From an uncultured Desulfobulbia bacterium (lineage in GTDB: Bacteria > Desulfobacterota > Desulfobulbia > Desulfobulbales > CG2-30-60-27): a stretch of DNA of 64,000 nt. The translations under genes were made by a program, and so were the position numbers. The first letter of the stretch is position 1; every line of letters starts with the position of its first letter. Below, one piece after another: positions 1 through 48,761 of this stretch. Below the pieces are notes generated by a model, which did no database searches, was not told where the DNA came from, and saw only the letters and a list, made by a program, of their open reading frames with translations. Location: assembly GCA_964443295.1 (NCBI GenBank), contig CAYUCH010000001.1, positions 57,456 to 121,455 on the forward strand, read 5' to 3'.

Positions 1-127
1 CATTTGTTAAATGATTAAAATATCCACCAAATGTAACAGATATGTCCTATTTCCGGTAAAAAAAACACCGAAAAAAATCCAAAATGTGGCTTGATAGGAG
101 AAATATTTCTCCAAAGCAAGAAAAAAA

Positions 128-24090: not shown

Positions 24091-24414
24091 TCAGGCCACG
24101 CTCAATCGTTCCCGATCAATCTGTGGAAGCTTGCTCAGGATGTCCCGAACCTCCTCATCTTCATCAAGCCAATCATTGAGGTGGCTTAACATGGCACGGG
24201 CATAGGGCGATTCACTGCCGTCTGTCAGCCGATAGTTAACCCAGGAACCTTCCCGACGGGAAATGACCAGACCAGCATCTTCAAGAGCCTTAAGGTGTTT
24301 TGAGACAGTGGGCTGCGCCAGACCAAGCAATGCCGTTATTTCACAGACGCATAACTCCCGCTTTTCAAGCATCTTGATAACCATAATTCTGTTTCGATCA
24401 GACAACGCCTTCAT
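24091..24414 (-). CDS. arsR: ArsR/SmtB-family metalloregulator
   Basis: Contains ELCVCEITALLGLAQPTVSKHLKALEDAGLV, i.e. a CVC metalloid-binding motif plus a wHTH. The start is placed at the internal Met (MKALSD); the track ORF extends to 24489. Confidence 0.85.
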   Translation of the reverse strand: MKALSDRNRIMVIKMLEKRELCVCEITALLGLAQPTVSKHLKALEDAGLVISRREGSWVNYRLTDGSESPYARAMLSHLNDWLDEDEEVRDILSKLPQIDRERLSVA

Positions 24415-24451
24415 AACGCGGACAAATGTTTTCACTGTGGAACCTCTTAGA

Positions 24452-24481
24452 CATATTGCCATATAGGAATATGGCAATATG
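24452..24481. promoter_or_regulatory. perfect 13-bp inverted repeat, candidate ArsR operator
   Basis: CATATTGCCATAT-agga-ATATGGCAATATG, read directly. It lies 38 nt upstream of the arsR start. Confidence 0.7.
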
Positions 24482-24588
24482 TAATTCAATATACATATTT
24501 GTCAAGGGAATTAAAGATCTTTCCTTTGACAAATATGTGCGCGTCTACTTTCTCAGACACTCCAAATCAGTCAAGAACGTTGATATAT

Positions 24589-25410
24589 TTAGGAAAGAAC
24601 TTTATCCAGTTCAAAGGAAAGGTGGTTAAGGTGGGCACGTTCTTCATCCATCATCCGAACAAACAAGTGCCTTGATTCATCGTCAGTGCACTTGTGAGCC
24701 ATACGCCCATACAGATCATAGGCCTGGGCTTCTAGTGCCATGGCAAACTCCAGAATTTCATTCACAGAGGCAAAGGCAGGGGTTCGAGCCTGCATCTCCT
24801 CTATAGTCATGCCGCCTTCCATGACACCAGGATCGGAACCGGCAGCACTTACCTCTTCCAAGCCAGCCCTTTGGCACTCTTTTACCAGCCTCTCCATGTG
24901 TATGTTTTCATACCCGGCAAGTTGTTCAAAAAGCTTTTTTTCATTTGGACTTGAAGCGTTTTCCGCCATATTGCCGTAAAACTTTTGCAACCCATCCTCC
25001 ATGGCATATGCAAGATGCACAGCATCGGGATACTCTTCGTCACCTTGGAACCATAAAAGGCCAAGGTCCAATGGCCCGTAAGCTTTTTCACCGGCCCATG
25101 CTTTGATCCCCCCAGCAAGGTTGTACACCTCTTCAAATCCCTGTGCTAAAAGATATTGCGCAGCAGCCCTGCTGCGACCACCTACTGCTCAGTAAACAAT
25201 TAGGGGCTTCCCCCGGTCCAATTCATCCAAGCGACCGGGTAATTCAGCTATGGGAATGAGCCTGGCGCCGGGGATATGGTGTTGCTCGTATTCTTTGGGT
25301 TGACGTACATCCAGGAGCTGATACTCCCCGGCAGAGTGTTTTTTAATATAGGTCCGGGCATCATCACAGCCCATATTCTCCACGGATTGGAAGAGATTTT
25401 TCAATTGCAT
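24589..25410 (-). CDS. selenocysteine-containing rhodanese domain fused to a ferritin/rubrerythrin-like domain
   Basis: The two track ORFs (25189..25461 and 24589..25128) are in the same frame and are separated only by a TGA at 25189..25191. That TGA replaces the catalytic Cys of the rhodanese loop (LIVY-U-AVGGRS). A hairpin follows 12 nt downstream. A GGAG lies 8 nt upstream of the ATG at 25410. Confidence 0.7.
25159..25176 (-). promoter_or_regulatory. SECIS-like hairpin downstream of the in-frame UGA
   Basis: On the minus strand: UGA, then 12 nt, then CGCAGCA-GGGC-UGCUGCG (a 7-bp perfect stem with a G-rich apical loop). Confidence 0.6.
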
Positions 25411-25841
25411 ATTTAACTCCGGTATCCAGGGATATTTCATGTAGCAAGACTTACAAATCACCCTGAAAGCTAATACCTCGGCCCAAGGCTTATTATTTTA
25501 ATGCCATTTCACGCAGCCGAGCAGCACAAAATTGGTCGGACTAGCGCGAGGACTGTTTGAGCATTCCTCTAAGAAATATAATCGTAGCGAGTTCCGCAAG
25601 CGCCCGACCAATTCGAGCAGCGCAGGGAAGCCAGACGAAGGAGGACCAAGTGAACGGCTGCCCTTTCTTTTGGTTCTTTTCTTTGCACCCGTACCGGGTA
25701 TAAAGGCAAGCAAAGAAAAGAACAGATAAAACAGAAGACTTTTCGACAATCTCTCAAACTAAAGCATAGTAAAATGTGGAGCATCTGCCAAGCTGATGTA
25801 CTTAAGGTCAAAAAAAGCCAAGCCCCTTCAGCTTAATCACC

Positions 25842-26889: not shown

Positions 26890-27285
26890 ATGACCAAATA
26901 TGCCATTATCGGCTTTGCCCTCTTCTTGGGAGGGATTTTTGTTGGTGGTGCCATTTTAGCTTCCAAGCTTTTGGCCTTTAGCACACCTCACAGCGCCCGT
27001 AAAGTTCAGGCATATGAATGTTCTGTTACACCCATGGGTGACGCTCGAATTCAATTCAAGGTCGACTACTACCTTTTTGCCTTACTCTTTCTCATCTTCG
27101 ACATCGAATCACTCTTTCTCTTTCCATGCGTACGCATCTTCAAATCCGTCATAAACGGCGATCTACCGACTATTCCAGCCGGAGTGCTCGCCATAGAACT
27201 CCTATTATTTATACTCATCCTCCTGGCCGGCCTTGCCTATGCCTGGAGAAAAGGAATCCTGGCATGGGAAAAGTTGGACTTGTAA
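26890..27285 (+). CDS. nuoA: NADH-quinone oxidoreductase subunit A
   Basis: 131 aa with 3 TM segments and the motif YECG-like ([12 protein letters not shown]), followed by FDIE. Confidence 0.85.
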
Positions 27286-28472
27286 CACGAGGTGTCCCGA
27301 AACTTGTCGACCCAATTCCAGGCGGCCGGCATTTAATAGACGGGATAGAATACATCGTAAGTTGGGCAAGGGCTAATTCCCTTTGGCCTCTGGTGTATGG
27401 TACTGCCTGCTGTGCCATGGAAATGATGTCCACTGGAGCCTCCCGCCATGATTGGGCCCGTTTTGGAGTTGAAGTAGCTCGGGCCACACCGCGCCAGGCA
27501 GATCTCATCGTGCTGGCCGGTACCATAGTGGAGAAAATGGCCGAGCCATTGGCCACCCTCTACACACAGATGCCTGGACCTAAATATGTTATTGCCATGG
27601 GGTCATGCGCCATTTCTGGTGGCCCTTTTTTCTATGATTCCTATTCAGTTATTAAAGGCGGTGACCGCATCATCCCGGTGGACGTGTATATCCCCGGCTG
27701 CCCTCCCCGCCCAGAGGCATTACTCTATGGAATAATGGAGTTACAGAAAATAATCCGCACTGAAGGACGCAGGAATCCCTGGAAAGTCAAAGACGTATAT
27801 TCAGTTCCCGCTGGCGACCTGTATACCGAAACAAAAAATAAGTGGGCTGCAGACCAACAAGAAAGAGAAGAAAACGGCCAAGCAGCTTTTAAAGCCAACC
27901 CAGACAGACAAAAACCAACCCGCCTTCCTAAACCAAAATTCCCTGAAGTTGAATACCAGCCGCCTGCTCAGGCAGGCTTGAGCCCAGAAGAAATAATGAA
28001 CCTTGTGCAGGAAAACTTTCCCAAGGCTGAAATTTTTTCTCAAAAAGAGCTCAATGGGGAAGACAAGCCTGTTGGCATTGAAGAACAGAGTGTTGTCATT
28101 GAAATCGCTGACTACCTTGCCCTTATCCATTTCCTAAAATCAAACCAAGCCCTCGAGATGACCATGTTGGTACAGATGACTGCTGTGGATCTGGCAGATC
28201 GTTTCGAAATCGTTGTTCAGCTTCAATCAGTTCATCACGGGCACATGTTTTTTGTACGCGTACCTGTGGACCATGAGCACCCTGATCTGCCAACTATTGT
28301 CCCACTTTTTTGCGGCGCAGAATGGCACGAAAGGGAGATATACGACTTTTTTGGCATTGAATTTACCGGCCACCCGGATCTCCGCCGTCTTTTTCTAAAT
28401 GAAGATTTTATCGGCCATCCCCTCAAAAAGGATTTCAGCGATGCAACCAGAGTCATCCCCAGACCGTATTAA
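27264..28472 (+). CDS. nuoBC: fused NADH-quinone oxidoreductase subunits B and C
   Basis: The N-terminal part is NuoB ([28 protein letters not shown]). A roughly 60-aa Pro/Gln-rich linker follows. The C-terminal part is NuoC ([26 protein letters not shown]). The start is taken at the ATG at 27264, not the track start inside nuoA. Confidence 0.85.
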
Positions 28473-29634
28473 CGGATTCCGTACAGATCCGGCCATACGC
28501 AACATTCCTCCCGGATTCTTCCGAGGCCCGGTTTCCGATGGCCATACGGATGAGTATTTCCTTAATATGGGTCCGCAACACCCGAGCACCCATGGGGTAT
28601 TACGGTTGGTACTGCGACTGGACGGTGAAAACATCCTTGAGGTGGTTCCCCATCTGGGCTATGTCCATCGCGGCATTGAAAAAATGGCCGAAAACCAAAC
28701 CTACATCCAGAACATCCATCTCACCGACCGGCTGGATTACCTCTCAGCCCATAGCAATAATCTCTGCCTCTGCATGGCCATTGAAAACGCATTGGAAATA
28801 GGTGTACCGGAACGAGGCGAATATATCAGGGTAATAGTGTGCGAATTACAGCGGCTTGCTTCACATCTCTTATGGTGGGGTGTCCTGGGCATGGACGTTG
28901 GAGCCATAACCTCATTCCTTTATGGATTTAAAGAACGGGAATTCATCACCGACATTTTTGAAGAAATGTGTGGAGCCCGCTTGACCATGAATTTCTTCCG
29001 GCCCGGCGGCTCTGTGGTAGACGTACCAGATACTTTCATTCCCCGGATAAAGGAAGTAATTGAACGGCTGAAAAAAGCCATCGACGAATACAATACGCTA
29101 TTGACTGGCAACATAATTTTCCAGGAGCGTTCCAAAGGCATTGGGATTCTTACGGCCGACAAGGCACTTTCATTTGGTTGCACGGGAGGTGTTCTCAGAG
29201 GATCGGGGGTAGATTTTGACGTGCGCCGGAAAAATCCCTATTCAATTTACGACCGATTCGACTTCGACATCCCAACCGCCGCCACTGGTGATTGCTTTGC
29301 ACGTTACCAGGTGCGCATGGAAGAAATGGTTCAATCGGTCAAAATACTGGAACAAGCGGTGGACAACTTTCCCCAGGGCCCACATCGTTCAAAAGAGCGA
29401 GCCCAGTATCGCCTGCCAGCCGGCAACCATTACGCCCAGGTTGAAACATCCCGTGGGCTTTTCGGTGTGTATATCGTGGCCGACGGTTCTGCGAAACCCT
29501 ACCGGATTAAATACCGATCACCGAATTTTTCCAACCTTTCAGCTGTAAACCATATGGCCAAGGGACATAAAATCGCCGACCTGGTTACCATCTTGGCTAC
29601 CCTTGACCTCGTTATCCCGGACATTGATCGATGA
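28441..29634 (+). CDS. nuoD: NADH-quinone oxidoreductase subunit D
   Basis: Carries [15 protein letters not shown], the RxEK-like HRGIEK, and a C-terminal DLVIPDIDR. The start is uncertain (28399 or 28441). Confidence 0.9.
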
Positions 29635-30740
29635 ATGCTGTAACCAGTGCTGCAGAAAACATAATGTACCCAACAAACAACCCAATCGGCGACCTGGTCC
29701 GCACCCATCTGGCCTCACCGGCCAGCGACATAGTGAATGGCGTATTAGCCATCGGCGCATTGCTTGCCCTCGTCGGACTCACCCCCGTCGCTCTCATCTG
29801 GCTGGAACGTAAGGTCTGCGCTCATTTCCAGGCCCGTCTCGGTCCCATGCGGGTTGGTTGGCACGGCCTCATGCAACCCCTGGCCGATGGAATCAAATTA
29901 ATGTTCAAAGAGATATTGAAACCCGAGGGTGCCGACTCCTTTCTTTTTTTTCTGGCCCCCATTCTGCCGGCCACCGGTACGTTTCTGGTGCTCACGGTAA
30001 TCCCCTTCGACCATCACCTCCAACTTGCAGATCTGGATGCCGGCGTCCTTTTTGTTATCGCCGCCTCGGGCTTAAATGTATTTGGCGTCCTTTTAGCCGG
30101 CTGGGCCTCAAACAATAAATATTCCCTGTTGGGTGGCATCCGGGCTGGAGCACAAATGATCTCCTTCGAGATTTCCCTGGCCCTCATCATGTTACTGGTG
30201 GTCCTTTTAAGCGGCACCGCCTCTTTGCGCGAAATTGTTCTTTCCCAGCAGGGCAATATTTTCGACTGGTGGCTCTTCAAGTTTCCGTTGTTCGGGGCCG
30301 TCTCTTTTTTGATGTATCTTATCTCTTCCACCGCCGAATTAAACAGAGGCCCCTTTGACATTGTGGAGGCCGAATCCGAGCTCACCGGAGGCTTCACCAC
30401 CGAGTACTCGGGTATCAGTTTTGCCATGTTCTTCCTGGCCGAATTTGTCAACATGTTTGCCTCGGCTGCTTTGGCCACCACCTTTTTCCTGGGAGGCTTT
30501 CTGGCGCCCCAATTCGGTTTCGCCCCATTGGACACTCTCTTGAACAACGTACCTGGAGTGATTTGGTTTTTCCTGAAATCCTACGGCATTATTCTTTGCT
30601 ATATGTGGTTTCGCTGGACATTTCCCCGCCCCAGGGTGGATCAAGTCATGATTCTGGAATGGAAAATTCTGCTGCCCATTAATCTCTTTCTGCTTTCCAT
30701 GGGTGGGCTTTTCATGGCAATGGGGTGGATCATCAAATGA
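29631..30740 (+). CDS. nuoH: NADH-quinone oxidoreductase subunit H
   Basis: Carries ERKVCAHFQARLGP, the GPFD...AESEL motif and TEYSG. Confidence 0.9.
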   Translation: MNAVTSAAENIMYPTNNPIGDLVRTHLASPASDIVNGVLAIGALLALVGLTPVALIWLERKVCAHFQARLGPMRVGWHGLMQPLADGIKLMFKEILKPEGADSFLFFLAPILPATGTFLVLTVIPFDHHLQLADLDAGVLFVIAASGLNVFGVLLAGWASNNKYSLLGGIRAGAQMISFEISLALIMLLVVLLSGTASLREIVLSQQGNIFDWWLFKFPLFGAVSFLMYLISSTAELNRGPFDIVEAESELTGGFTTEYSGISFAMFFLAEFVNMFASAALATTFFLGGFLAPQFGFAPLDTLLNNVPGVIWFFLKSYGIILCYMWFRWTFPRPRVDQVMILEWKILLPINLFLLSMGGLFMAMGWIIK

Positions 30741-31183
30741 AGTATATCAGCAAAATATTTCAAGGATTCAGCTCTCTTACCAAGGGCATGCGCCTCACCA
30801 TGGGCTATTTACTGGACCCACGCAAAACCGTCACTCGACAATATCCAGAAAACAGAGAGACCCTCACCATGTTTCCCCGGTTTAGAGCAAGCCTGGTTAT
30901 GTTTCGAAACGATGAGGGCGACCACTTATGTACGGCCTGCGGCTTATGCGAGAAAGCCTGCCCCAACGGCACAATTTCCATGCTGACCACCAAAAACGAC
31001 CAGGGCAAAAAAATCCTCGGGAAATACGTATATCGTCTCATGCAATGCACTTTATGCAATCTATGCGTAGAAGCCTGCCCTTTTGGAGCCATTGGCATGG
31101 AGCAGGATTTTGAACTGGCTGCCTACAGTCGAGATGATCTCATTTACGTACTCTACGATTATACTGAAGGGGGGAAACCATAA
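30725..31183 (+). CDS. nuoI: NADH-quinone oxidoreductase subunit I (2x[4Fe-4S])
   Basis: Has two ferredoxin motifs, CTACGLCEKACP and CTLCNLCVEACP. Confidence 0.9.
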   Translation: MDHQMKYISKIFQGFSSLTKGMRLTMGYLLDPRKTVTRQYPENRETLTMFPRFRASLVMFRNDEGDHLCTACGLCEKACPNGTISMLTTKNDQGKKILGKYVYRLMQCTLCNLCVEACPFGAIGMEQDFELAAYSRDDLIYVLYDYTEGGKP

Positions 31184-31716
31184 TGGAAGATATCCTGTTT
31201 TATTCCTTCGGCGGGCTCCTGGTAATTTTTTCAATATTAGTAGTGATGACCCCTAATCTCCTGCACGGGGCCATTGCCCTAGTGGCCTCCTTTTTCATGA
31301 CTGCCAGCCTGTATCTCCTTTTCCAGATGGAATTCGTGGCCATTGCCCAAGTTATGATCTATATCGGTGGCATTGTCATCTTTGTGGTAATCACCATACT
31401 TCTTACCACCCGGCTGGGAGAACTCCACAACCCACCAACCCAGAAACAGAGACTGTGGGGGTTTTTCGTAGCCTCCACTCTCCTGGTGATGCTCCTCTCT
31501 GTGCTTATCAACCAGGACATTATCCAAACAATCAACCAACAGACCGCAGCGGCAACATCGGCGGACCTGGCCACCATCGGCACTCGGCTCCTCCAGCCGA
31601 CAACCGGCGGCTTCATCGTTCCTTTCGAATTAGTGTCTGTGTTGCTTCTTATTGCTCTCATCGGGTCGGTGGTCATTGCTCGTAAAGAGACGAGAAAGGG
31701 CGAGGAACCAACATGA
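31183..31716 (+). CDS. nuoJ: NADH-quinone oxidoreductase subunit J
   Basis: 177 aa, hydrophobic. The call rests on its position and a NuoJ-like pattern (VMIYIGGIVIF). Confidence 0.8.
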   Translation: MEDILFYSFGGLLVIFSILVVMTPNLLHGAIALVASFFMTASLYLLFQMEFVAIAQVMIYIGGIVIFVVITILLTTRLGELHNPPTQKQRLWGFFVASTLLVMLLSVLINQDIIQTINQQTAAATSADLATIGTRLLQPTTGGFIVPFELVSVLLLIALIGSVVIARKETRKGEEPT

Positions 31717-32018
31717 ACTTGACCAATTGCCTCATACTTTCCACCATATTGCTCTGCATTGGTGTCTTTGGCGTAATCACCCGGCGAAATTTCATCGGCA
31801 TCCTCCTCTCCGTTGAGATAATTCTTAATGCAGCCAATATAAATTTCATCGCCTTTGCCCGGTTCAGTGCCAGCGACTCCACTGCAGGCGCGGTGTTCCC
31901 TGTGTTTGTCATGGCCATATCAGCCTGTGAAATGGCCGTTGCCCTGGCCATCATCATTGCCATGTATCGTAAGAAGAGACATCTGGACAGCCGGCTACTT
32001 GGTGAACTCCATGGATAA
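31713..32018 (+). CDS. nuoK: NADH-quinone oxidoreductase subunit K
   Basis: 101 aa with 3 TM segments and the conserved-Glu context EIILNAANINF...ACEMAVALAI. Confidence 0.85.
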   Translation: MNLTNCLILSTILLCIGVFGVITRRNFIGILLSVEIILNAANINFIAFARFSASDSTAGAVFPVFVMAISACEMAVALAIIIAMYRKKRHLDSRLLGELHG

Positions 32019-33975
32019 CTTTTTCATATCCCATAGCTACCTGACGCCATTGCTGCCCCTGGTCTCTTTTCTTATCCTCGGGCTTGTGATCGGCGGGAAA
32101 AATCGTCGGGCTTCCACCCTTGTCGCATTGACTCTGTCCCTCCTGTCCATGCTTTCCGCCTTTGGAGTGGCATGGGCTTATTTCCGAACCGTCTTGAAGC
32201 ATCCTGAAACATATCCGGACAAAACCATCATCGCCTTTGACTACCAATGGCTTAACTTCACCCCCGACCTCACGGCCCATATCGGCGCCTATCTTGACCC
32301 AATTTCCGTCATGATGCTCCTGGTGATCACGGTCATTGCCTTTCTGGTAAGTATCTACTCGGTAGGCTACATGCATGACGATCCAGGATTCGGTAGGTTT
32401 TTTGCCCTCTTGAATCTATTCGCCTTTTCCATGCTGGGCCTGGTCCTCTCAACCAATCTCATACAGATCTTTGTTTTCTGGGAATTGGTGGGCGTTTCTT
32501 CTTATTCCTTAATAGGTTTCTGGTACGAAAAACCAAGCGCTGTGGCGGCAAGCAAAAAAGCCTTCATTGTCACCCGTTTTGCCGACGCGTTTTTCCTCAC
32601 CGGCATAATCACCGTTGCAACCCTGGCCGGCAGCTTTGATTTTCTGACTTTAAATTCTCCTCAAACAGCTGACCAACTCAATCAATCAACGCTCATTTTC
32701 GGCATGGATGTTAACTTGCTTGCCCTTGCCGGTCTGTTGATTTTTGCCGGCGGCTGGGGTAAATCAGCCATGTTCCCCCTCCATATCTGGCTGCCCGATG
32801 CCATGGAAGGACCGACTCCTGTTTCATCCATTATCCACTCCGCCACCATGGTTGTGGCCGGTGTATATCTTACAGCCCGCATGCTGCCACTTTTCGCTGC
32901 ATCCCATGTAGTTCTGGAAACTGTCCGTATCGTCGGTGTTTTCACCGCCCTCTTCGCCGGGGTTATTGCCCTGACTCAAAAGGACATCAAACGCATTCTG
33001 GCCTTTTCCACCCTGTCTCAACTGGGATACATGATGTTCGCCTTAGGGGCGGTACAAATGGCTGGAGACCATGCTGAACTCGGCCAGAACATCCTGGGAT
33101 ACAGCTCCTCAATGTTCCACGTTTTCACCCATGCCTTCTTTAAATGTCTCCTCTTTCTGGGTGCCGGTGCCATCATTCATGCCGTGCACAGCAATGACAT
33201 TGAGGATATGGGTGGCTTAAAAACAGTTATGCCATGGACTTACTGGTCACTCCTGGCTGCGTGCTTAGCCATTGCCGGGGTGCCTCCCCTTTCCGGCTTC
33301 TGGTCCAAAGATGCGATATTGCTCACAGCATTGCAATCAGGCCATTATGTCACTTTCGCAACCGGATTAGTAGTTGGCGGCATCACCGCCTTGTATATGT
33401 TCCGTTTCTTCTTTCTGATCTTTCATGGCCCATCAACCCCGGCCAAACTATCCATTAAAGAAGATCCATGGATGACTGTTCCCATAGTCATTCTGGCTAT
33501 TCCATCCTTGTTGATTGGTTATTTCAGTAAAGATTTCTTTTTCAACCAATTCCAGATTCCCATGTTTACAGGAGACCACCATGGCCACCACCCTGCCTGG
33601 CTTCCCATGGTGGCGTCGGCAATGGGTATCGCCGGGGTGATTTTAGCATGGATTTTCTATGGGCAAGGGAAAGTACAACTTGCTGAAAAATTGCGAGAAC
33701 GCTTGTCCTTCTTACACCGCCTGACCTTCAACAAATTTTATATTGATGAGATATATCTGTTTATCACCAAAAAAATAATTTTCGGGCTGGTTGCTGCGCC
33801 AATCAAGTGGTTTGACCGAAATGTGGTGGATGGCCTCATGAACGCAACTGCCTGGATACTTCAAGCCGGAGGCACCCTTGTCCGCTTGATTCAAAACGGC
33901 CAGTTAACCTTTTATCTTGGAGGTGCGGCCCTGGGCCTCATCTTCCTTTATATGTTTGGCGGATTACCGTTGTAG
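32011..33975 (+). CDS. nuoL: NADH-quinone oxidoreductase subunit L
   Basis: Antiporter-like subunit (WELVGVSSYSLIGFW, HAFFKCLLFLGAG) with a long C-terminal lateral-helix region. The start is at the ATG at 32011 (MDNFF); the track ORF begins inside nuoK. Confidence 0.9.
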   Translation: MDNFFISHSYLTPLLPLVSFLILGLVIGGKNRRASTLVALTLSLLSMLSAFGVAWAYFRTVLKHPETYPDKTIIAFDYQWLNFTPDLTAHIGAYLDPISVMMLLVITVIAFLVSIYSVGYMHDDPGFGRFFALLNLFAFSMLGLVLSTNLIQIFVFWELVGVSSYSLIGFWYEKPSAVAASKKAFIVTRFADAFFLTGIITVATLAGSFDFLTLNSPQTADQLNQSTLIFGMDVNLLALAGLLIFAGGWGKSAMFPLHIWLPDAMEGPTPVSSIIHSATMVVAGVYLTARMLPLFAASHVVLETVRIVGVFTALFAGVIALTQKDIKRILAFSTLSQLGYMMFALGAVQMAGDHAELGQNILGYSSSMFHVFTHAFFKCLLFLGAGAIIHAVHSNDIEDMGGLKTVMPWTYWSLLAACLAIAGVPPLSGFWSKDAILLTALQSGHYVTFATGLVVGGITALYMFRFFFLIFHGPSTPAKLSIKEDPWMTVPIVILAIPSLLIGYFSKDFFFNQFQIPMFTGDHHGHHPAWLPMVASAMGIAGVILAWIFYGQGKVQLAEKLRERLSFLHRLTFNKFYIDEIYLFITKKIIFGLVAAPIKWFDRNVVDGLMNATAWILQAGGTLVRLIQNGQLTFYLGGAALGLIFLYMFGGLPL

Positions 33976-34074
33976 AGGTTCCTGGTTTTTCGGAATCACA
34001 AGGGCAATTGCTCTATCCTAAACCTTTGAACCTTGAACCCTGAACGTTGAACCTGCAACCGGAGTATCGCTTAA

Positions 34075-35586
34075 ATGAACGGATCGACCCTATTAACATC
34101 AATCTGGCTTTTGCCATTTATCACCGCGTTTTGCACCCTACCGGTTGCCAGACACAACCATCGTCTCATCAAAAAAATAACCCTGGTGGGCACCAGCATC
34201 AATCTCCTGCTTATTATCGGACTGGTTGGCAAATTCATGACCAGTGCCGCACTCCATGGAACAGGAATGGGCTCACGCAGCACCATGTTGCACTTCACCC
34301 AGAAAGTCCCCTGGTTTCATCTAATGAACATCCAATACAATATCGGTGTAGACGCCATATCGGTGCTCATGATGTTACTCACAGGTATAGTCATTTTCTG
34401 CGGCGTCCTTGCCAGTTGGAATGTAGAAAAACAGGCCAAGGAGTTCTTTGCTTTGCTGAATGTCCTGGTGGGTGGAGTATACGGCGTCTTTATCTCCTTT
34501 GACCTTTTTACATTTTTTCTGTTTTACGAAGTGGCTGTTCTCCCCATGTACCTTTTAATAGGTCTCTGGGGTACCGGAAAAAAAGAATACTCGGCCATGA
34601 AACTCACTTTGATGCTGGTGGCCGGTTCTGCCTTTATTCTGGCCGGCATCCTGGCTCTCTATTTTGAATCGGGCATACAGACCTTTGATATTACCCTTCT
34701 TTCCCAGGTGGAATTTTCAAACGCTTTTCAGTCTTGGGTCTTTCCACTTATTTTTATCGGCTTTGGCGTTTTGGGGGCTCTTTTCCCATTCCACACCTGG
34801 TCACCAGACGGCCATGCCTCCGCCCCCACCGCGGTCTCCATGCTCCATGCCGGAGTATTGATGAAATTAGGCGGCTACGGCTGCCTGCGGGTTGCCATGT
34901 ACCTCATGCCTGAGGGGGCCCAATTATGGATGCCTGTTTTCCTCATCCTGGTCACCGTTAATGTTGTCTATGGCGCCTTTGGGGCCATTCGCCAGACCGA
35001 CCTGAAATACATAACCGCCTACTCCTCTGTCTCCCATTGCGGTTTGGTGCTTTTTGGTTTGACAGCAATGACCTACGCCGGTTTCAAGGGTGCAGTTCTG
35101 CAGATGATTTCCCACGGTTTAATGACCGCCCTCTTTTTCTGTCTCATCGGAATGATCTATGGCCGCACCCATACCAGGAATATTCACGAAATGGGTGGTT
35201 TGATGAAAGTGATGCCCTTCTTGTGTGTGAGCTTTGTTATTGCTGGTCTTGCTGGCCTTGGCCTCCCAGGCCTTTCAGGCTTTGTGGCGGAGATCACTGT
35301 GTTTCTCGGCGCCTTTGCCAACAGCAATCCTTTGAATCGAGTCTGCACTGTATTAGCGGTTCTCTCCATCGTGGTGACAGCGGTCTATATTTTACGAACT
35401 GCCAACTCGGTCATGAACGGCCCCATACGGCAATCATTTCAGGACTTGAAAGATGCCACTCTGATGGAAAAATTACCGGTCTCCATCTTGCTCTTTACAC
35501 TCTTTGCCATGGGATTATTGCCGGGTTGGATAATCAATTTGGTAAATGGGGCCATTGATCCCATTTATAACAATATAATGCGGTGA
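34075..35586 (+). CDS. nuoM: NADH-quinone oxidoreductase subunit M
   Basis: 503 aa, antiporter-like (FFLFYEVAVLPMYLLIG, HTWSPDGHASAPTAVSMLHAGVLMKLGGYG). Confidence 0.9.
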   Translation: MNGSTLLTSIWLLPFITAFCTLPVARHNHRLIKKITLVGTSINLLLIIGLVGKFMTSAALHGTGMGSRSTMLHFTQKVPWFHLMNIQYNIGVDAISVLMMLLTGIVIFCGVLASWNVEKQAKEFFALLNVLVGGVYGVFISFDLFTFFLFYEVAVLPMYLLIGLWGTGKKEYSAMKLTLMLVAGSAFILAGILALYFESGIQTFDITLLSQVEFSNAFQSWVFPLIFIGFGVLGALFPFHTWSPDGHASAPTAVSMLHAGVLMKLGGYGCLRVAMYLMPEGAQLWMPVFLILVTVNVVYGAFGAIRQTDLKYITAYSSVSHCGLVLFGLTAMTYAGFKGAVLQMISHGLMTALFFCLIGMIYGRTHTRNIHEMGGLMKVMPFLCVSFVIAGLAGLGLPGLSGFVAEITVFLGAFANSNPLNRVCTVLAVLSIVVTAVYILRTANSVMNGPIRQSFQDLKDATLMEKLPVSILLFTLFAMGLLPGWIINLVNGAIDPIYNNIMR

Positions 35587-37031
35587 TGAATATGATTGAT
35601 TTAGGAACAAACCTCCTCATCCTGCCGGAAATCTTCCTGTTTCTCCTGGCATGCCTGGTGCTGACCACGGACCTTATTCGTCAAAGACCGCTGTCCAAAG
35701 CACCATACACTCTGTCGTGGACTGGCCTGCTCCTTTTATTTTCTCTTCTGCTCGTGACACCACATGGCGAGGAAGCTACCTATTTTGGCACCTATCGGGT
35801 CACCGGTCTCTCCCTGTTTTTCAAACAGGTTTTCGTTTTTTCAGCGCTCTGCACCGTACTCCTGTCCCGCACCTATTTCGTTCCCGGAGGAAACTTTCGC
35901 GGTACCATGCACAATCAAGGAGAATTCTATACTATCCTGCTTGTCTGCACTCTGGGCATGTTTACCGTGGTAAGTGCGACTGATTTACTGACATTGTTTG
36001 TCGGCTTGGAAATGGCCACCATACCGCTCTATGTTCTCAGTGCCTTTTTAAAAGGGGATGACCATTCCGCCGAGGCTTCCACCAAATATATCATCATGGG
36101 ATCCCTTTCCACCGGCTTTCTCCTTTTTGGTTATTCATTTATATACGGCGCGGCCGGCGGAACCCAATTCGACCAGATATTGCTTGCTGCCCAGACTTCC
36201 CCTACAAATCCGTTATTAAACCTGGGGGTTCTTTTTGTGCTGGCGGCCATCGGTTTCAAACTGACCTTATTCCCTTTTCATATGTGGGCCCCGGATGTCT
36301 ATGAAGGTGCCCCAACCCCGGTGACCGCCTTTCTGGCCATTTCCTCGAAAGCCACAGCCATCGCTTTTTTAGTTATGCTTCTACACGGCCCCCTTGCCCC
36401 ATTGCTGCCAAGCCTACACTGGGTTCTTCTCCTGTTGGCCGCTGCCACTATGACCGTGGGAAACCTGGGTGCTTTACGACAAACAAACCTACGGCGTTTC
36501 ATGGCCTATTCCTCAATCGCCCAGGCAGGCTATATTGTCATGGCTTTGACCGGTACGCAAGCAATGGCCCAGTCATCCATCCTCTTTTACCTCTTCGTAT
36601 ACGCAGCGGCCAACTTTGCGGCCTTTTTCATAATTTCCCTGGTGGGTCAAAAACAAGAGGAAACATTTTCGGCCTTACGCGGTCTTGGACAACAACATCC
36701 AGGCTTGGCGTTAATCCTGATGCTTTCGCTTTTTTCTCTTGGGGGTATTCCGCCAATGGCCGGATTCATGGGAAAATTCTTGTTATTCGCCGCAGCAGCC
36801 GAGCAGGGATATTACTTCATGGTGGTCTTCGCGGCTTTAAACTCGACCATCTCGCTTTATTATTATCTGTTGCTCATCAAAGAAGCCTATATCAATGAAT
36901 CGCCAGCGGAACCACTGACTCTCAGTATAAACCTACATCAAAAAGCCAGCCTTGCCTTACTTACCATGGGCATGATCCTACCCGCCTTCTTGCCTCAACT
37001 ATTAGCTGCCATCACAAATAGTACCCCATAA
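35583..37031 (+). CDS. nuoN: NADH-quinone oxidoreductase subunit N
   Basis: 482 aa, antiporter-like (GLEMATIPLY, FHMWAPDVYEGAPTPVTAF). It is the last gene of the operon. Confidence 0.9.
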   Translation: MMNMIDLGTNLLILPEIFLFLLACLVLTTDLIRQRPLSKAPYTLSWTGLLLLFSLLLVTPHGEEATYFGTYRVTGLSLFFKQVFVFSALCTVLLSRTYFVPGGNFRGTMHNQGEFYTILLVCTLGMFTVVSATDLLTLFVGLEMATIPLYVLSAFLKGDDHSAEASTKYIIMGSLSTGFLLFGYSFIYGAAGGTQFDQILLAAQTSPTNPLLNLGVLFVLAAIGFKLTLFPFHMWAPDVYEGAPTPVTAFLAISSKATAIAFLVMLLHGPLAPLLPSLHWVLLLLAAATMTVGNLGALRQTNLRRFMAYSSIAQAGYIVMALTGTQAMAQSSILFYLFVYAAANFAAFFIISLVGQKQEETFSALRGLGQQHPGLALILMLSLFSLGGIPPMAGFMGKFLLFAAAAEQGYYFMVVFAALNSTISLYYYLLLIKEAYINESPAEPLTLSINLHQKASLALLTMGMILPAFLPQLLAAITNSTP

Positions 37032-39271: not shown

Positions 39272-39742
39272 ATGAGAAATCATGTGCTAAGGCCACTTTA
39301 TGTGGCTTTAGGAGTTGTGGCTCTGATCCTGTTGGCCCGGAGCATGATTGTTCCCCCTGATTTCAAGGCACAAAGAGGAGATTTCACCTTTGGTTTTCAT
39401 CGTGCAAGCAACGTGGATGAATGGAAAGCCGTCCCGATAAAATACCGTGGTAAAGAATCGTGTGCAGAATGCCACGAAGAAAATGTAGAAGAGCACGCAT
39501 CATCTCCTCACTCCACCATTGAATGCGAAAATTGTCATGGGCCAGCCATAAACCACCCTGACAATCCAGAAGCACTGGAAATTGACAAAAGCAGGGCTCA
39601 ATGCCTGCGATGTCATGCAGACCTTCCCTATCCGTCAAGTCACCGATCTGAAATAGCCGGCATAGACCCCGCAGATCATAATGCGTCGTCACAGTGTATA
39701 GAATGCCATCAACCCCATAATCCGGATCTGGAGAATATGTGA
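39272..39742 (+). CDS. membrane-anchored tetraheme c-type cytochrome
   Basis: Has an N-terminal anchor helix and four CxxCH motifs (CAECH, CENCH, CLRCH, CIECH). A strong RBS (AAGGAGG) precedes the start. Confidence 0.85.
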   Translation: MRNHVLRPLYVALGVVALILLARSMIVPPDFKAQRGDFTFGFHRASNVDEWKAVPIKYRGKESCAECHEENVEEHASSPHSTIECENCHGPAINHPDNPEALEIDKSRAQCLRCHADLPYPSSHRSEIAGIDPADHNASSQCIECHQPHNPDLENM

Positions 39743-40512
39743 TGAGTTGCTCGCGAAGGAAATTCCTTAAGAATACCCTTGCCGGGGCCGTTGCATCTTC
39801 ACTGCCCCTTTCTGCCTTTAAATTATTAAGTCCTGCTGAAGTTAAAGCAGCCATTGGCGATGCCAAGGTACGCTGGGCTTTTCTGGTCGACACCTATAAG
39901 TGTGTCGGCTGTGGCATGTGTGTCAAAGCATGTAAAAGTGAAAATGATATTCCATACAACATTCCCGTCACCAGAACGTGGGTTGAAAGATATGTCGTGA
40001 AAAAAAACGGCGAGACCTTAATCGATTCGCCCGATGGTGGCCGAGAGGGGTATACCACTCCTACAATCCACGGAGAAAAAATAGATCCTGACGATATTGT
40101 TAAAGGTTTTTTTGTCCCCAAACTATGCAATCAGTGTGAGACACCGGCCTGTGTACAAGTGTGTCCGGTGGGTGCTACCTACCAGACCCAGGATGGTGTT
40201 GTTTTAGTCGATCGGAGTTGGTGTATCGGCTGTGGGTACTGCATCATGGCCTGTCCATTTGGAGCACGCTTTTTCCATCCGATTCACAAAGTGGCAGAAA
40301 AATGTACCTTTTGTTACCACCGAATTTCCAATGGCATGACCACCGCTTGTGTGCAGGGATGCGCATTTGGCGCTCGACAAATCGGAAATTTGAAAGATCC
40401 CGAAGATCCCGTTACCAAAATAGTAATGACAGAAAGAGTCTCGATTTTAAAAGATGAGTACGGCACCAAACCGCAGGTTTTCTACATCGGCTTGGATGCA
40501 AACGTGAGGTAG
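39739..40512 (+). CDS. Tat-exported 4x[4Fe-4S] ferredoxin subunit (NrfC/PsrB/DmsB family)
   Basis: Has the twin-arginine signal SRRKFLK and four Cys clusters (CVGCGMCVKAC, CNQCETPACVQVCP, CIGCGYCIMACP, CTFCYHRI...CVQGC). Confidence 0.85.
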   Translation: MMSCSRRKFLKNTLAGAVASSLPLSAFKLLSPAEVKAAIGDAKVRWAFLVDTYKCVGCGMCVKACKSENDIPYNIPVTRTWVERYVVKKNGETLIDSPDGGREGYTTPTIHGEKIDPDDIVKGFFVPKLCNQCETPACVQVCPVGATYQTQDGVVLVDRSWCIGCGYCIMACPFGARFFHPIHKVAEKCTFCYHRISNGMTTACVQGCAFGARQIGNLKDPEDPVTKIVMTERVSILKDEYGTKPQVFYIGLDANVR

Positions 40513-40519
40513 ATACATT

Positions 40520-41767
40520 ATGGAAGAGTTAATACACGTACATGGTATGGAATGGACGGCCAAGGAGCTCTTTACCTACCCTAATGAGTTCATCTATTGG
40601 AGTATTCAGATTGTAATGTACCCGTATATGACCGGGCTGGTGGCAGGAGCTTTTGTCCTTTCGTCCCTTTATCATGTTTTTGGTCAAAAGGACCTGAAAG
40701 ACATAGCGAAGTTTTCACTTGTTTTTTCTTTGGCCCTGTTGCCGGTGGCCATGATGCCGCTTATGTTGCATTTGCAGCAACCCTTGCGTGGTATGAACGT
40801 AATGTTCACACCCCATTTTACTTCTGCCATTGCTGCTTTCGGTATTGTCTTTACCTTTTACGCTATGATTGTTTTAAGTGAAATCTGGTTTGTCTACCGA
40901 GAATTTTTTGTCCAACAGACAATTGCCCTGAAAGACGATGATACCACCAGCGGCACTTTAAAACGCTGGACCTACCACCTTTTTTGTCTTGGCGCCTACA
41001 ACACTGATGAAGACTCCATCAGCAAAGACAAAAAAGCCGTTACAATACTTGCCGCCATCGGTATACCGGTTGCCTGCTTCCTGCATGGGTATGCCGGTTT
41101 CATTTTTGGCTCTGTTAAAGCAAACGCACTCTGGATGTCACCTCTTATGCCGGTTATCTTCATTATGTCTGCCGTTGTTTCCGGCATTGCTCTTTGCATG
41201 CTGACATATATTATCATTATGGAATTCAAACATTTTAGTACCGCTTTTGCCAAGGGCAGGGGAGATGAATCGGTACAATTAATCCGCGGTGTAGAGATGG
41301 ACGTCATTACTAAGGCTTCCAAATATCTCATTGGTTTCCTGGTTGCGGCTATCAGCCTGGAGCTGCTTGACTTAATTTTCAGGGGGTATACCGCCATGAA
41401 GTCGTGGGATATCCTCCGAACGGTCATGTTTAAAACTGACTTTATAAAAATCTTTATCTTGCAGTATGGCCTGGGCAACTTATTGCCATTTGCCCTCCTT
41501 TTGATGCCTAAACTCACCATTAGACGCACCGTTGTTGCTTTGTTGCTCATTCTCTTCGGTGTCTTTATGATGCGTTGGAATGTTGTCATAGGCGGGCAGG
41601 CATTTTCTCTGTCATTTGCAGGATATATGCATTACCACATGCCAATTATCCCCCATCACCTTGAAGCATATAAAGAAGGCTTACTTGGTGCTCTGACAGT
41701 TATGGCGACACCTTTTCTGCTTTTCTGGCTTATAAACAAATTTGTCCCGTCTTTACGCTACGATTAA
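40520..41767 (+). CDS. NrfD/PsrC-family quinone-interacting membrane subunit
   Basis: 415 aa, about 10 TM segments, directly downstream of the FeS subunit. Confidence 0.8.
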   Translation: MEELIHVHGMEWTAKELFTYPNEFIYWSIQIVMYPYMTGLVAGAFVLSSLYHVFGQKDLKDIAKFSLVFSLALLPVAMMPLMLHLQQPLRGMNVMFTPHFTSAIAAFGIVFTFYAMIVLSEIWFVYREFFVQQTIALKDDDTTSGTLKRWTYHLFCLGAYNTDEDSISKDKKAVTILAAIGIPVACFLHGYAGFIFGSVKANALWMSPLMPVIFIMSAVVSGIALCMLTYIIIMEFKHFSTAFAKGRGDESVQLIRGVEMDVITKASKYLIGFLVAAISLELLDLIFRGYTAMKSWDILRTVMFKTDFIKIFILQYGLGNLLPFALLLMPKLTIRRTVVALLLILFGVFMMRWNVVIGGQAFSLSFAGYMHYHMPIIPHHLEAYKEGLLGALTVMATPFLLFWLINKFVPSLRYD

Positions 41768-41821
41768 AATGTTTATCGTCAGTTAGCATTCTTCTACATA
41801 TCTATTTGATCCAAAATAAAA

Positions 41822-41855
41822 CTGGGAACCTGCTGCAAAGTCAGCAGGTTCCCAG
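41822..41855 (+). terminator. perfect 14-bp stem hairpin after the NrfD gene (terminator-like, no clear U-tract)
   Basis: CTGGGAACCTGCTG-caaagt-CAGCAGGTTCCCAG, read directly. Confidence 0.5.
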
Positions 41856-41978
41856 GGAGAGGTAATGATATAGCTTTATATAACAAAGAGTATTGGCTAA
41901 TCGTATGCATGCCTTTCAGGGTGTTTTACTCTAGCTGAAACACCATTCCATCAACTCAAACAAACCTTTTCTTCAAAA

Positions 41979-43007: not shown

Positions 43008-43031
43008 TCCTACACTATTTTTTCCAAAAAA

Positions 43032-43062
43032 AGAGGCGCCGGTGTTGAACTCCGGCGCCTCT
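43032..43062. terminator. bidirectional intrinsic terminator between convergent genes
   Basis: AGAGGCGCCGG-tgttgaact-CCGGCGCCTCT, flanked by an A-run upstream and a T-run downstream. Confidence 0.8.
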
Positions 43063-43091
43063 TTTGGGATTAATACTCTATAGCGTAACCG

Positions 43092-44678: not shown

Positions 44679-44695
44679 TTGCAATATAAATGCCA
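44679..44695 (-). promoter_or_regulatory. sigma-54 (-24/-12) promoter upstream of the multiheme cytochrome gene
   Basis: The minus strand reads TGGCAT-ttata-TTGCAA. GG/GC spacing is canonical. It lies about 125 nt upstream of the ATG at 44555. Confidence 0.7.
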
Positions 44696-48560: not shown

Positions 48561-48648
48561 GAGCGTTCCTTAAAAGGCCGGGATCCCAAGTGAACAATTA
48601 CGTTCCCGACTGTGGGTTGTATCGCGTCAAAAGAGTACGACACTTTTG

Positions 48649-48665
48649 TTGCAATGAGAATGCCA
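48649..48665 (-). promoter_or_regulatory. sigma-54 (-24/-12) promoter upstream of ftsH and the kinase
   Basis: The minus strand reads TGGCAT-tctca-TTGCAA, about 90 nt upstream of the ftsH ATG. Confidence 0.65.
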
Positions 48666-48761
48666 CCATGTTGTATATATTTCTAATCAAATTTACTCAT
48701 GATTACCAGAAATTATCACGGTTATTTAACAACACATATTTCCACTGTTGCTGCTACCCTT

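Follow-up and report, generated by a model that had tools for sequence, protein, structure and literature searches.

A probable selenoprotein gene joining a rhodanese and a ferritin-like domain, with a short SECIS-type hairpin, in a Desulfobulbia contig

The locus at positions 24589 to 25410 (minus strand) of the window, as we call the whole 64,000-nucleotide stretch of DNA analysed here, is very probably one gene for a selenoprotein of 273 residues, in which selenocysteine (Sec) stands in for the catalytic Cys of the rhodanese, with a SECIS hairpin and a ferritin-like C-terminal domain. This conclusion rests on a single in-frame TGA that aligns with Cys in the homologues, on the conservation of the frame downstream of it and on a hairpin specific to the Sec forms. 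Sec-containing rhodaneses with a UxxG motif are already known; the gene described here adds a member to them, and current understanding is not overturned. The features of the locus are as follows.

25417..25420, minus strand: GGAG motif resembling a Shine-Dalgarno sequence, 6 nt 5' of ATG 25410 (direct sequence reading)
24589..25410, minus strand: read-through gene of 273 codons and a TAA stop, Sec being proposed at codon 74; the product has two domains, rhodanese and ferritin-like
25090..25344, minus strand: rhodanese domain, aa 23-107, with the UGA inside it (Pfam PF00581, E 4.4e-24, 85.3 bits against a cutoff of 22.2)
25189..25191, minus strand: UGA in frame at codon 74, proposed to encode the catalytic Sec of the rhodanese loop U-A-V-G-G-R-S
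25159..25176, minus strand: SECIS-type hairpin CGCAGCA-GGGC-UGCUGCG, with a perfect 7-bp stem and a 4-nt loop whose first base is G
24619..25020, minus strand: ferritin-like / rubrerythrin-like four-helix bundle, aa 131-264 (Pfam PF02915, E 4.1e-12, 47.1 bits against a cutoff of 22.8)

Reading frame and domains

From ATG 25410 to the TAA at 24591-24589 a single frame runs along the minus strand. Its sole interruption is the TGA at 25191..25189, where the translation reads ...GKPLIVY*AVGGRSRAAAQYL..., so that the two halves share one frame across the TGA, as had been claimed in the first-pass annotation of the sequence. The start was placed at ATG 25410 because the N-terminus that it gives, MQLKNLF, aligns with the homologue start MNWKNLF; the upstream GTG 25461 was rejected on the same alignment. 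No sigma-54 promoter was found upstream of the gene, and a scan of the window for further genes split at TGA gave nothing convincing. The locus is divided at the TGA in the ORF list as well as in the JGI gene calls, the JGI annotation of the contig giving an 83-aa 'Rhodanese' and a 179-aa 'Rubrerythrin', and the NCBI annotation of Desulforhopalus singaporensis splits its member of the family likewise. It must be noted that gene calling systematically breaks a two-domain selenoprotein in this way, leaving a truncated 'Rhodanese' beside a 'Rubrerythrin', and hundreds of genomes consequently under-report the selenoprotein and mis-state two protein families.

The active-site loop U-A-V-G-G-R-S fits the pattern C/U-x-x-G-x-R-[ST]; in the family R79 does not vary and S80 hardly does. 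All 23 aligned homologues have Cys at the UGA column, which is also invariant in an alignment of 59 sequences, and the motif YCAxG[GN]RS was found in 117 of the 119 full-length matches of a first search, as was a YCAxGGRS-type motif in 118 of the 120 matches of a second. Together with the rhodanese profile match, these data agree with the earlier proposal that the UGA replaces the catalytic Cys of C-x-x-G-x-R-[ST], for which a U/C pairing at this column had been named as a check. In the PDB, the sequence and fold matches of the rhodanese domain are GlpE-type and fused rhodanese domains. The score against the GlpE thiosulfate sulfurtransferase equivalog (NF001195) was 64.9 bits, below the cutoff of 102, and judged by sequence the domain has a fold related to GlpE and is not a GlpE equivalog. 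It is a member neither of NCBIfam NF041203, rhodanese_LYCAU (form 3, CxU; 37.6 bits against a cutoff of 115), nor of NF045694, the TsoB rhodanese/DsbD selenoprotein (form 5; 19.2 bits against 805), and NCBIfam holds no selenoprotein model for the rhodanese / ferritin-like two-domain family.

The statement, in the first-pass annotation, that Sec-rhodaneses occur in deltaproteobacteria is correct, since they have been reported in deltaproteobacterial selenoproteomes (PMC1976440, PMC13188914). The forms 2 and 4, described as 'rhodanese-related sulfurtransferase' or 'rhodanese-like domain-containing protein', carry UxxG in PF00581 / COG0607 (PMC13188914 table, PMC9312934, PMC1976440) and are represented by MBM9537886.1 and MCY3690685.1. 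The window motif U-A-V-G within PF00581 fits their UxxG criterion, this assignment being made by motif and domain. As in those forms, Sec is placed at the rhodanese catalytic position in a UxxG motif and the distribution is deltaproteobacterial / Desulfobacterota; the published surveys class the forms by the rhodanese domain only, and the comparison made here is by motif and description. The words ferritin and rubrerythrin are absent from the 2026 review (PMC13188914). One of the genome matches obtained here (L123) comes from the Delta 4 symbiont of Olavius algarvensis, and this Sec-rhodanese family was reported from that symbiont.

With respect to the C-terminal half, the suggestion of a ferritin/rubrerythrin-like four-helix bundle was confirmed by the PF02915 match and by a complete di-iron ligand set E...ExxH...E...ExxH (E138, E168, H171, E227, E257, and H260), all six positions of which are invariant across 59 homologues. 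In the AF2 model of the closest Cys homologue, long helices span residues 127-150, 155-183, 218-242, and 246-275 (pLDDT 91), and the PDB sequence match of the bundle is 1vjx, the TM1526 ferritin-like di-iron carboxylate protein. True rubrerythrins have a C-terminal rubredoxin-like Cys4 domain. Such a domain is absent from the window protein, which ends at residue 273 directly past the fourth helix and whose only Cys residues are C15, C179, and C241, with no CxxC pairs. By its sequence it is a member of the ferritin-like di-iron family (PF02915) but not a true rubrerythrin; it shares the four-helix bundle and the E...ExxH...E...ExxH ligands with rubrerythrin / erythrin-type di-iron proteins (PF02915; TM1526, 1vjx), and differs from them in having no Cys4 domain and in being fused to a rhodanese.

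The protein was also compared with solved rhodanese fusions, namely persulfide dioxygenase-rhodanese (5ve3-5), CoA-disulfide reductase-RHD (3icr) and NADH persulfide reductase (3nta, 6pfz). The rhodanese domain of the modelled Cys homologue superposes on those of the fusions at 1.2-2.4 A with 31-42% identity, and the architecture is alike in that a catalytic Cys/Sec carrier domain is tethered to a redox or metal domain. In contrast, the partner in the window protein is a ferritin-like di-iron bundle, which is found in none of them, and sequence and fold searches of the PDB returned no solved structure with both rhodanese and ferritin-like domains.

The SECIS-type hairpin

The hairpin begins 12 nt past the UGA, its loop begins 19 nt past it, and its letters are those of the codons R79-S80-R81-A82-A83-A84. 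In the bacterial consensus model of Zhang and Gladyshev (bSECIS), as summarised in PMC13188914, the apical loop has 3-9 nt with a G within its first two positions, the stem has 4-16 bp, the distance from UGA to loop is 16-37 nt and the MFE is at most -7.5 kcal/mol. All the values of the window hairpin lie within these limits (loop GGGC of 4 nt, stem of 7 bp, spacing of 19 nt and bare-hairpin MFE of -10.4 kcal/mol), in accordance with the first-pass description of a perfect 7-bp stem at this distance with the shape of a bacterial SECIS element. The archetype of such elements is that of E. coli fdhF. The hairpin resembles bacterial SECIS elements in being a stem-loop within the coding region, directly 3' of the UGA, with a small G-first apical loop at a 19-nt spacing; unlike them, it is very short and simple (7 bp, no bulged U) and is built entirely from active-site loop codons. 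No Rfam model covers it, the Rfam search giving no SECIS family match at gathering or permissive thresholds.

When the same peptide was recoded by synonymous-codon resampling, at least 7 Watson-Crick pairs in the two SECIS registers were obtained with P = 0.00035, and in the same stem test in any register P was ~0.02. Among the matches listed (n = 221), at least 5 contiguous Watson-Crick pairs in register A or B are present in 92% of the Sec forms and at least 6 in 70%, the window having 7. The Cys-form genes of the window's own subclade (n = 7) have 1-3 contiguous pairs at the hairpin site, and Cys forms reach at most 4/7 paired positions, which are non-contiguous. The conserved peptide does not by itself account for the hairpin, because the seven Cys-form genes reach only 1-3 contiguous pairs and the synonymous null gives a P of ~0.00035.

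Two alternative pairing registers are found across the family. In the window's register, pairing amounts to 80% over 117 species-level sequences (among the matches listed) versus 6-67% in slid controls, and double-sided CG<->AU changes are seen in the stem, one of which swaps Ala for Ser. The covariance analysis proposed in the first-pass annotation thus yielded register-specific pairing and some compensatory changes, but covariation in the stem is modest, as expected of a coding sequence in which two registers are mixed. Folding energies gave no significant signal, either for the whole-region fold against shuffles (z -0.86) or for the local MFE against a codon-shuffled null (p ~0.15); GC-rich alternative folds mask this signal, and register-specific pairing was therefore used. 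A generic best-stem measure (G-U allowed, any register) was too noisy and was dropped.

The proposed SECIS consists of codons for the loop peptide R-S-[RK]-[AV]-A-A, which is conserved, with Arg CGC pairing with Ala GCG and Ser AGC with Ala GCU, so that the hairpin can arise or vanish mostly through synonymous changes. A minimal coding SECIS of this kind may be of use for engineering short SECIS-compatible coding sequences.

Family distribution and the exchange of Sec and Cys

Searches with the pattern VY-TGA-A-x-GGRS[RK][AV]AxQ, in which the TGA is fixed and whose chance expectation in the window is 0, matched at least 120 metagenome contigs and at least 119 species genomes. The matches listed are nearly all from Desulfobacterota and include isolate genomes. 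Among them, the frame stays open for 200-224 codons beyond the UGA in 201 of 209 complete loci (199 codons in the window), and the downstream parts of at least 150 aa match the window's ferritin-like domain in 213 of 213 cases. Orthologues all ending at the UGA, which had been named beforehand as evidence against a Sec gene, were not seen; more than 200 independent UGA-bearing orthologues keep both the downstream frame and the domain. An alignment of 24 sequences including the window has 60 invariant columns, hence kept in the window by definition, and many of them, with the six di-iron ligands, lie past the UGA. Every Cys homologue is a single chain of 272-286 aa.

At least 14 switches between Sec and Cys were counted on a 152-leaf tree. 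A clean Sec/Cys split in a first tree was a sampling artefact, overturned by a broader Cys sample. The window gene is placed in a mostly-Cys subclade, apart from most of the Sec forms retrieved, and a second Sec form of this subclade (L250) has a related hairpin with the same A-U closing pair. As judged from these sequences, the family is large, belongs to Desulfobacterota and has many Sec/Cys interchanges. It offers a large natural series of such switches in which a minimal SECIS lies within the active-site codons, and this series is of use for studies of SECIS origin. In the main Sec subfamily the gene forms a tight operon with that of an oxidoreductase, a relative of the SelD-N-terminal family (TIGR03169).

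Taking these data together, we tentatively consider a joint reading that is possible, though on balance doubtful. The loop would be pre-adapted for Sec, given that G-G-R-S-[RK]-[AV]-A-A-Q may be written as a SECIS by synonymous codons alone and at the right distance, and lineages would for this reason flip repeatedly between Cys and Sec; the window gene and L250 would be independent, fairly recent Cys-to-Sec conversions; and the family would handle selenium besides sulfur, for instance as a perselenide carrier, as the operon with the TIGR03169-related oxidoreductase suggests.

Alternative explanations, decoding and gene context

The window gene might be a recent pseudogene, in which a TGY-to-TGA nonsense mutation inactivated a gene of the Cys type and the conserved R-S-R-A-A-A codons produced the hairpin by coincidence. 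It nests among Cys forms, and the nearest relatives of its protein are all Cys forms with ~55% identity, so phylogeny alone leaves room for such a mutation; besides, the loop peptide is partly self-complementary, as the 4/7 non-contiguous pairs of Cys forms indicate, and no Sec machinery was seen in ~79 kb. However, a random nonsense substitution would land on codon 74 with P ~0.009, and multiplied by the 0.00035 to 0.02 of the hairpin this gives a joint chance of 3e-6 to 2e-4. No further lesion is present, the family-invariant downstream residues are all kept, and the register of the hairpin is exactly that of over 150 orthologues of the Sec form. Two samples share the allele, the TGA being identical in a contig from the second one (99.98% identity over 15 kb), and L250 provides another Sec form in the same subclade with the same A-U closing pair. 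A pseudogene is therefore improbable.

It is very unlikely that two products are made, one stopping at UGA-74 and the other, the ferritin-like part, started separately from GTG 25128. The JGI and NCBI pipelines annotate the locus so, and a GAGG stands just 5' of this GTG; nevertheless, it touches the GTG with zero spacer, the first product would be a 73-residue fragment without the catalytic loop and half the rhodanese fold, and the 179-aa ORF would start at aa 95, within the final stretch of the rhodanese domain. Moreover, all Cys homologues are single polypeptides, and the conserved hairpin would be left unexplained. Even less credible is a Sec-independent decoding of the UGA as Trp, Cys or Gly, by a variant code or leaky read-through, or an error of sequencing or assembly. 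All window data come from metagenomic assemblies, but TGA is the normal stop of 8 of the 28 well-annotated window genes, among them that of the hydrogenase large subunit, where it falls at the conserved C-terminus, the TGA of codon 74 is identical in independently assembled contigs of different samples, and it stands at the same column in more than 200 orthologues of other genomes, isolates included.

For the Sec gene that we prefer, the competence of the organism to insert Sec is assumed from phylogeny. No selA, selB, selD, tRNA-Sec or second selenoprotein gene was found in the ~79 kb formed by the window and L249, L251, and L252, and the sequence beyond both window ends, within the same ~79 kb, contains neither sel genes nor a tRNA-Sec. 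A hydrogenase encoded at the right-hand edge of the window was considered as a second selenoprotein and rejected, as it ends in DPCISCSVH and is of the Cys type. It is encoded in a four-subunit group-3b-like operon, without MvhD or HdrA.

By analogy with the established bacterial mechanism, UGA-74 would be decoded as Sec and not as a stop, and translation would run into the C-terminal domain. The selenolate in the loop U-A-V-G-G-R-S would take the place of the thiolate that accepts sulfane sulfur, and it may also accept selenium. As to the biochemical role of the rhodanese / di-iron fusion, which we infer throughout, the di-iron domain is probably a redox partner that would process or regenerate the chalcogen adduct on Sec, by comparison with the rhodaneses fused to persulfide dioxygenase or to persulfide/CoA-disulfide reductases. 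A Sec-rhodanese tethered to a predicted di-iron centre may serve sulfur or selenium trafficking in sulfur-cycling anaerobes.

The gene adjoins a cluster of ArsR, ArsP-permease, thioredoxin and DsbD genes, at whose head the first-pass annotation had placed it. The physical adjacency stands, but a shared operon was rejected and a functional link is not supported: homologues of ArsR, ArsP or Thioredoxin_3 adjoin the family loci in 0 of 239 Sec-form cases (among the matches listed) and in 0 of 7 Cys-form cases, and a separate promoter-like site, with operator-like inverted repeats, belongs to the ArsR gene. The adjacency is probably coincidental.

The interrupted frame and its UGA column

Gene calling by JGI and the mechanical ORF list alike break the gene at a TGA; JGI reports the pieces as "Rhodanese" (83 aa) and "Rubrerythrin" (179 aa). 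As the first-pass annotation had proposed, the two halves belong to a single minus-strand frame:

25410 to 24591-24589, minus: read-through frame from ATG to TAA, 273 residues with one internal TGA
25191..25189, minus: in-frame TGA, sole interruption of the rhodanese/ferritin frame
residues 23-107, minus: Rhodanese domain (Pfam, E 4e-24)
residues 131-264, minus: Rubrerythrin domain (Pfam, E 4e-12, above the gathering score)

A GGAG is located 6 nt ahead of the ATG, and the start codon was fixed by the agreement of the N-terminus (MQLKNLF) with that of homologues (MNWKNLF). With read-through, the peptide around the UGA is ...GKPLIVY-U-AVGGRSRAAAQYL..., and the UGA thus occupies the Cys codon of the rhodanese active-site loop (U-A-V-G-G-R-S). 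This placement and the ferritin/rubrerythrin-like nature of the C-terminal half had also been claimed, and both were confirmed, as was everything else that the annotation stated about the sequence.

A large protein search with the window protein gave more than 1,000 homologues, and the best 120 of them, mainly from Desulfobulbales-type MAGs and Thiovibrio, were almost all full-length (272-286 aa) with the same two domains. The suggested alignment with Cys orthologues showed Cys at the UGA column in 23 of 23 aligned homologues (motif V-Y-C-A-x-G-G-R-S), with 47-56% identity to the window protein across both halves. In a 59-sequence alignment, C74, R79 and the ligands E138, E168, H171, E227, E257 and H260 were invariant, and the window protein keeps the whole set, position 74 being the UGA/Cys column. 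The same codon was found in a contig from another sample (15 kb at 99.98% identity). In the source organism TGA otherwise serves as a regular stop, closing 8 of 28 annotated genes, among them the one for the hydrogenase large subunit, at its conserved C-terminus. Neither a sequencing error nor an altered code is thus a likely explanation of the TGA.

UGA-bearing orthologues were sought with a degenerate DNA pattern back-translated from V-Y-[TGA]-A-x-G-G-R-S-[RK]-[AV]-A-x-Q, which matched once in the window and never in 100 shuffles. In public collections it matched at least 120 metagenome contigs and at least 119 species-representative genomes. Among the matches listed, the genomes were nearly all Desulfobacterota (Desulfobacula, Desulfotignum, Desulfosarcina alkanivorans PL12, Desulfospira joergensenii DSM 10085, Desulfomonile, Desulforhopalus singaporensis DSM 12130, Desulfatiglandales and the Olavius Delta 4 symbiont), with a few Acidobacteriota and Myxococcota MAGs. 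The first-pass annotation had considered that all orthologues might stop at the UGA; the opposite was seen among these matches, with 200-224 codons open past it in 201 of the 209 loci with a complete 3' end. The downstream parts of at least 150 aa all matched the window's ferritin-like domain (213/213), and at least two ExxH motifs were kept in 201 of 206 parts of at least 190 aa. Given that independent pseudogenes would not show such an open frame and intact domain, the family is, on sequence evidence, one that holds genuine Sec forms on a large scale.

The hairpin downstream of the UGA

The hairpin described in the first-pass annotation was found as claimed:

25176..25159, minus: CGCAGCA-GGGC-UGCUGCG, a perfect 7-bp stem 12 nt past the UGA

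Its likeness to bacterial SECIS elements in position and shape was upheld against a published model, which specifies a loop of 3-9 nt, a stem of 4-16 bp, a G in the first two loop positions, a UGA-to-loop distance of 16-37 nt and an MFE of at most -7.5 kcal/mol (PMC13188914). The window element has a 4-nt GGGC loop, 7 bp, a spacing of 19 nt and a bare hairpin energy of -10.4 kcal/mol. It matched no Rfam family, folding of the whole region around the UGA was no better than that of shuffles, and the local MFE was unexceptional against a codon-resampled null (p ~0.15).

The stem lies within the codons for R79-S80-R81-A82-A83-A84 (CGC AGC AGG GCU GCU GCG), and since these encode a conserved peptide, a control for the peptide was needed. 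Contiguous Watson-Crick pairs were scored in the two registers observed among Sec forms, counted from the U of the UGA: register A pairs nt +15..21 with +26..32 and register B +17..23 with +27..33. The window hairpin has 7 such pairs; among 221 distinct Sec-form sequences from the matches listed, 92% had at least 5 and 70% at least 6, while the Cys-form genes of the window's own subclade (n = 7) had only 1-3. When the window peptide was fixed and synonymous codons were redrawn from the window's own codon usage, the probability in registers A/B was 0.00035 for at least 7 pairs and 0.003 for at least 6, and ~0.02 for at least 7 pairs in any register. The manual covariance analysis that had been recommended gave register A pairing in 80% of cells in 117 species-level sequences from the matches listed, versus 6-67% when the 3' arm was slid by 1-3 columns, the statistics of both registers being diluted because a minority of sequences uses register B (GAGCCGC-GUG-GCGGCUC). 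CG<->AU changes on both sides of the stem occurred at two positions, and one double-sided change (CGA...UCG) turns Ala into Ser.

Sec and Cys forms within the family

The window protein is nearest to Cys forms (~55% identity, as against at most 49% to the retrieved Sec forms), and in a first NJ tree it was grouped as the sole Sec form with 53 Cys forms, which raised the alternative that the gene is a pseudogene of a Cys form. This is argued against by a second split Sec-form gene of the same mostly-Cys subclade, found by a search with the C-terminal fragment alone:

L250 (metagenome locus, protein P0123) 2238-3071: Sec-form gene, JGI Ga0136851_10175490

It reads ...KPVIAY-U-ASGGRSKAAAQ... and carries a related but weaker hairpin (CGGAGCA-AGGC-UGCUGCG, one G.G mismatch, -6.3 kcal/mol). 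Its A-Y in place of V-Y escaped the pattern, so pattern scans under-count Sec forms. In addition, with a broader Cys sample from a search with the Desulforhopalus protein, the clean Sec/Cys split of the first tree disappeared as a sampling artefact: Sec and Cys forms were interspersed across the 152-leaf tree, which needs at least 14 switches, a number that, like their independence, is indicative only because the NJ tree has no support values. Finally, a random nonsense substitution would fall on codon 74 with a probability of ~0.009, or 3e-6 to 2e-4 jointly with the hairpin odds. We consider it very probable that the window gene is a functional Sec-encoding gene. At the family level, the data are indicative of recurrent Sec/Cys switching with the SECIS written in active-site codons.

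Sec-rhodaneses are already known from selenoproteome surveys, and the window gene adds a member. Those mentioned for deltaproteobacteria in the first-pass annotation are indeed on record, as eight Sec genes for a "Rhodanese-related sulfurtransferase" in Olavius delta-symbionts (PMC1976440), and a 2026 review lists five Sec-rhodanese forms, two with a UxxG motif (PMC13188914). The window's U-A-V-G fits that motif, and the likeness is one of motif, the protein scoring below the curated cutoffs of the NCBIfam models for form 3 (LYCAU), TsoB and GlpE. The survey classes rest on the rhodanese domain only and leave the ferritin/rubrerythrin domain unmentioned (PMC13188914). Mis-annotation of the family appears to be systematic. 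NCBIfam has no selenoprotein model for the family, U was absent from all 260 retrieved proteins, and NCBI's entry for the UGA-containing gene of the cultured species Desulforhopalus singaporensis DSM 12130 (L136, NZ_FNJI01000020.1) amounts to a "Rubrerythrin" fragment of 161 aa (P0163). To the specialist, finding a Sec-rhodanese in Desulfobacterota will be no surprise; the interest of the case lies in the fusion architecture, the mis-annotation and the recurrent switching with a SECIS made of active-site codons, a family-level picture that is useful and testable.

Pfam annotation of the remaining window (nuo genes, NrfD/Fe-S/cytochrome genes, two-component systems, FtsH, MoaA-like, DUF3373, hydrogenase) included no SelA, SelB or SelD. 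The window's four tRNAs did not include tRNA-Sec, no other convincing split-at-TGA gene was seen in it, and no Sec machinery was found in the 10 kb past its left edge or the ~5 kb past its right edge. We infer the Sec competence of the organism from the family distribution, which among the matches listed includes Desulfobulbales (Desulforhopalus, Desulfopila, Desulfofustis).

The gene presents a single conserved frame, Cys/UGA pairing, both domains intact with their catalytic and metal-ligand residues, and a Sec-form-specific hairpin at SECIS distance from the UGA. By the established bacterial pathway (PMC13188914, PMC9312934), SelB with Sec-tRNA(Sec) would bind the hairpin loop and insert Sec at UGA-74. 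Judging from what is known of the family, a selenolate in the U-A-V-G-G-R-S loop would replace the persulfide-forming rhodanese thiolate; more speculatively, the di-iron bundle might act on, or regenerate, an adduct on Sec. For the nearest Cys homologue, AF2 gave a confident model (pLDDT 91.4, pTM 0.88). Matches of the rhodanese half are GlpE-type domains, among them the ones that occur in fusions with persulfide dioxygenase, CoA-disulfide reductase and persulfide reductase. In sequence, the C-terminal half comes closest to the ferritin-like di-iron protein TM1526. No solved structure was seen to combine the two domains in these sequence and fold comparisons.

Gene neighbourhood and other genes of the window

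Downstream of the gene and on the same strand, an ArsR-family gene is followed by those for an ArsP_1-type permease, a Thioredoxin_3 protein, a thioredoxin and a DsbD-type membrane protein:

24489..24091, minus: ArsR-family gene
TTGACA at 24505: sigma-70-like promoter (18-nt spacer, CATATT) in the 100-nt gap before ArsR
24451-24464 / 24469-24482: inverted repeat, perfect 14-nt arms, overlapping the promoter
24493-24510 / 24521-24538: inverted repeat, 18-nt arms, overlapping the promoter

The repeats (24451-24538) are probably the ArsR operator/promoter of this cluster, which, with its own promoter and repeats, looks like an autonomous, autoregulated unit, its adjacency to the window gene seeming coincidental. 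The place of the gene beside an ArsR/thiol-relay cluster, noted in the first-pass annotation, thus stands as an adjacency but not as a conserved one: no ArsR, ArsP_1 or Thioredoxin_3 homologue adjoins any of 239 Sec-form loci among the matches listed or 7 Cys-form loci, the thioredoxin recurring in 5 of those Sec-form loci and the DsbD protein in 1. Some of the surroundings are shared within the window's subclade. The FA_hydroxylase gene upstream of the window gene recurs in that position in 2 of 7 Cys-form loci, and also in 13 Sec-form loci among the matches listed. Directly downstream in Cys-form relatives (loci L243-L245, L247) are genes for a PAS histidine kinase, a sigma-54 response regulator, two small ORFs and FtsH, and their window counterparts lie apart:

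46674-53778, minus: PAS kinase/sigma-54 regulator/two small ORFs/FtsH block, ~21-25 kb from the gene
49908-49923 and 48650-48665, minus: good sigma-54-like sites in this block

This indicates a rearrangement in which the gene was parted from the genes that normally adjoin it.

In the main Sec subfamily, a pyridine-nucleotide-disulfide oxidoreductase gene is directly downstream in 107 of 179 loci among the matches listed (376 aa, median gap ~26 nt in loci L003-L241; e.g., contig L215, 4391-5522), and a SagB/nitroreductase-type gene is upstream in 42. The best NCBIfam match of the oxidoreductase is TIGR03169 "Nterm_to_SelD" (E 1e-72; 245 bits, against a curated cutoff of 310), a possible link of the family to selenium metabolism; neither the window and its flanks nor L250 has this partner.

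At the right edge of the window, the hydrogenase was ruled out as a selenoenzyme by its Cys-type C-terminus:

63233-64000, minus: NiFe hydrogenase large subunit, C-terminus (...AYDPCISCSVH)

This subunit belongs to a four-gene operon (window 63233-64000 and contig L251, 13558-17592), which, with subunits matching NiFeSe_Hases, Oxidored_q6, FAD/NAD-binding and Fer4_22, looks like the group-3b sulfhydrogenase type. The window also contains a nuo-type complex I operon (26890-37031, plus) with a fused NuoB/C-like ORF (Oxidored_q6 + Complex1_30kDa); from nuoD to nuoH, no gene for NuoE, NuoF or NuoG is visible. Region 39739-44555 encodes, on the plus strand, an iron-sulfur protein of the Fer4_11 type and an NrfD-type membrane protein, close to an AhpC/TSA-TPR fusion gene and the gene of a NapC/NirT-like cytochrome, and a sigma-54-like site, TGGCATTTATATTGCA (44680-44695, minus), is located upstream of the cytochrome gene.
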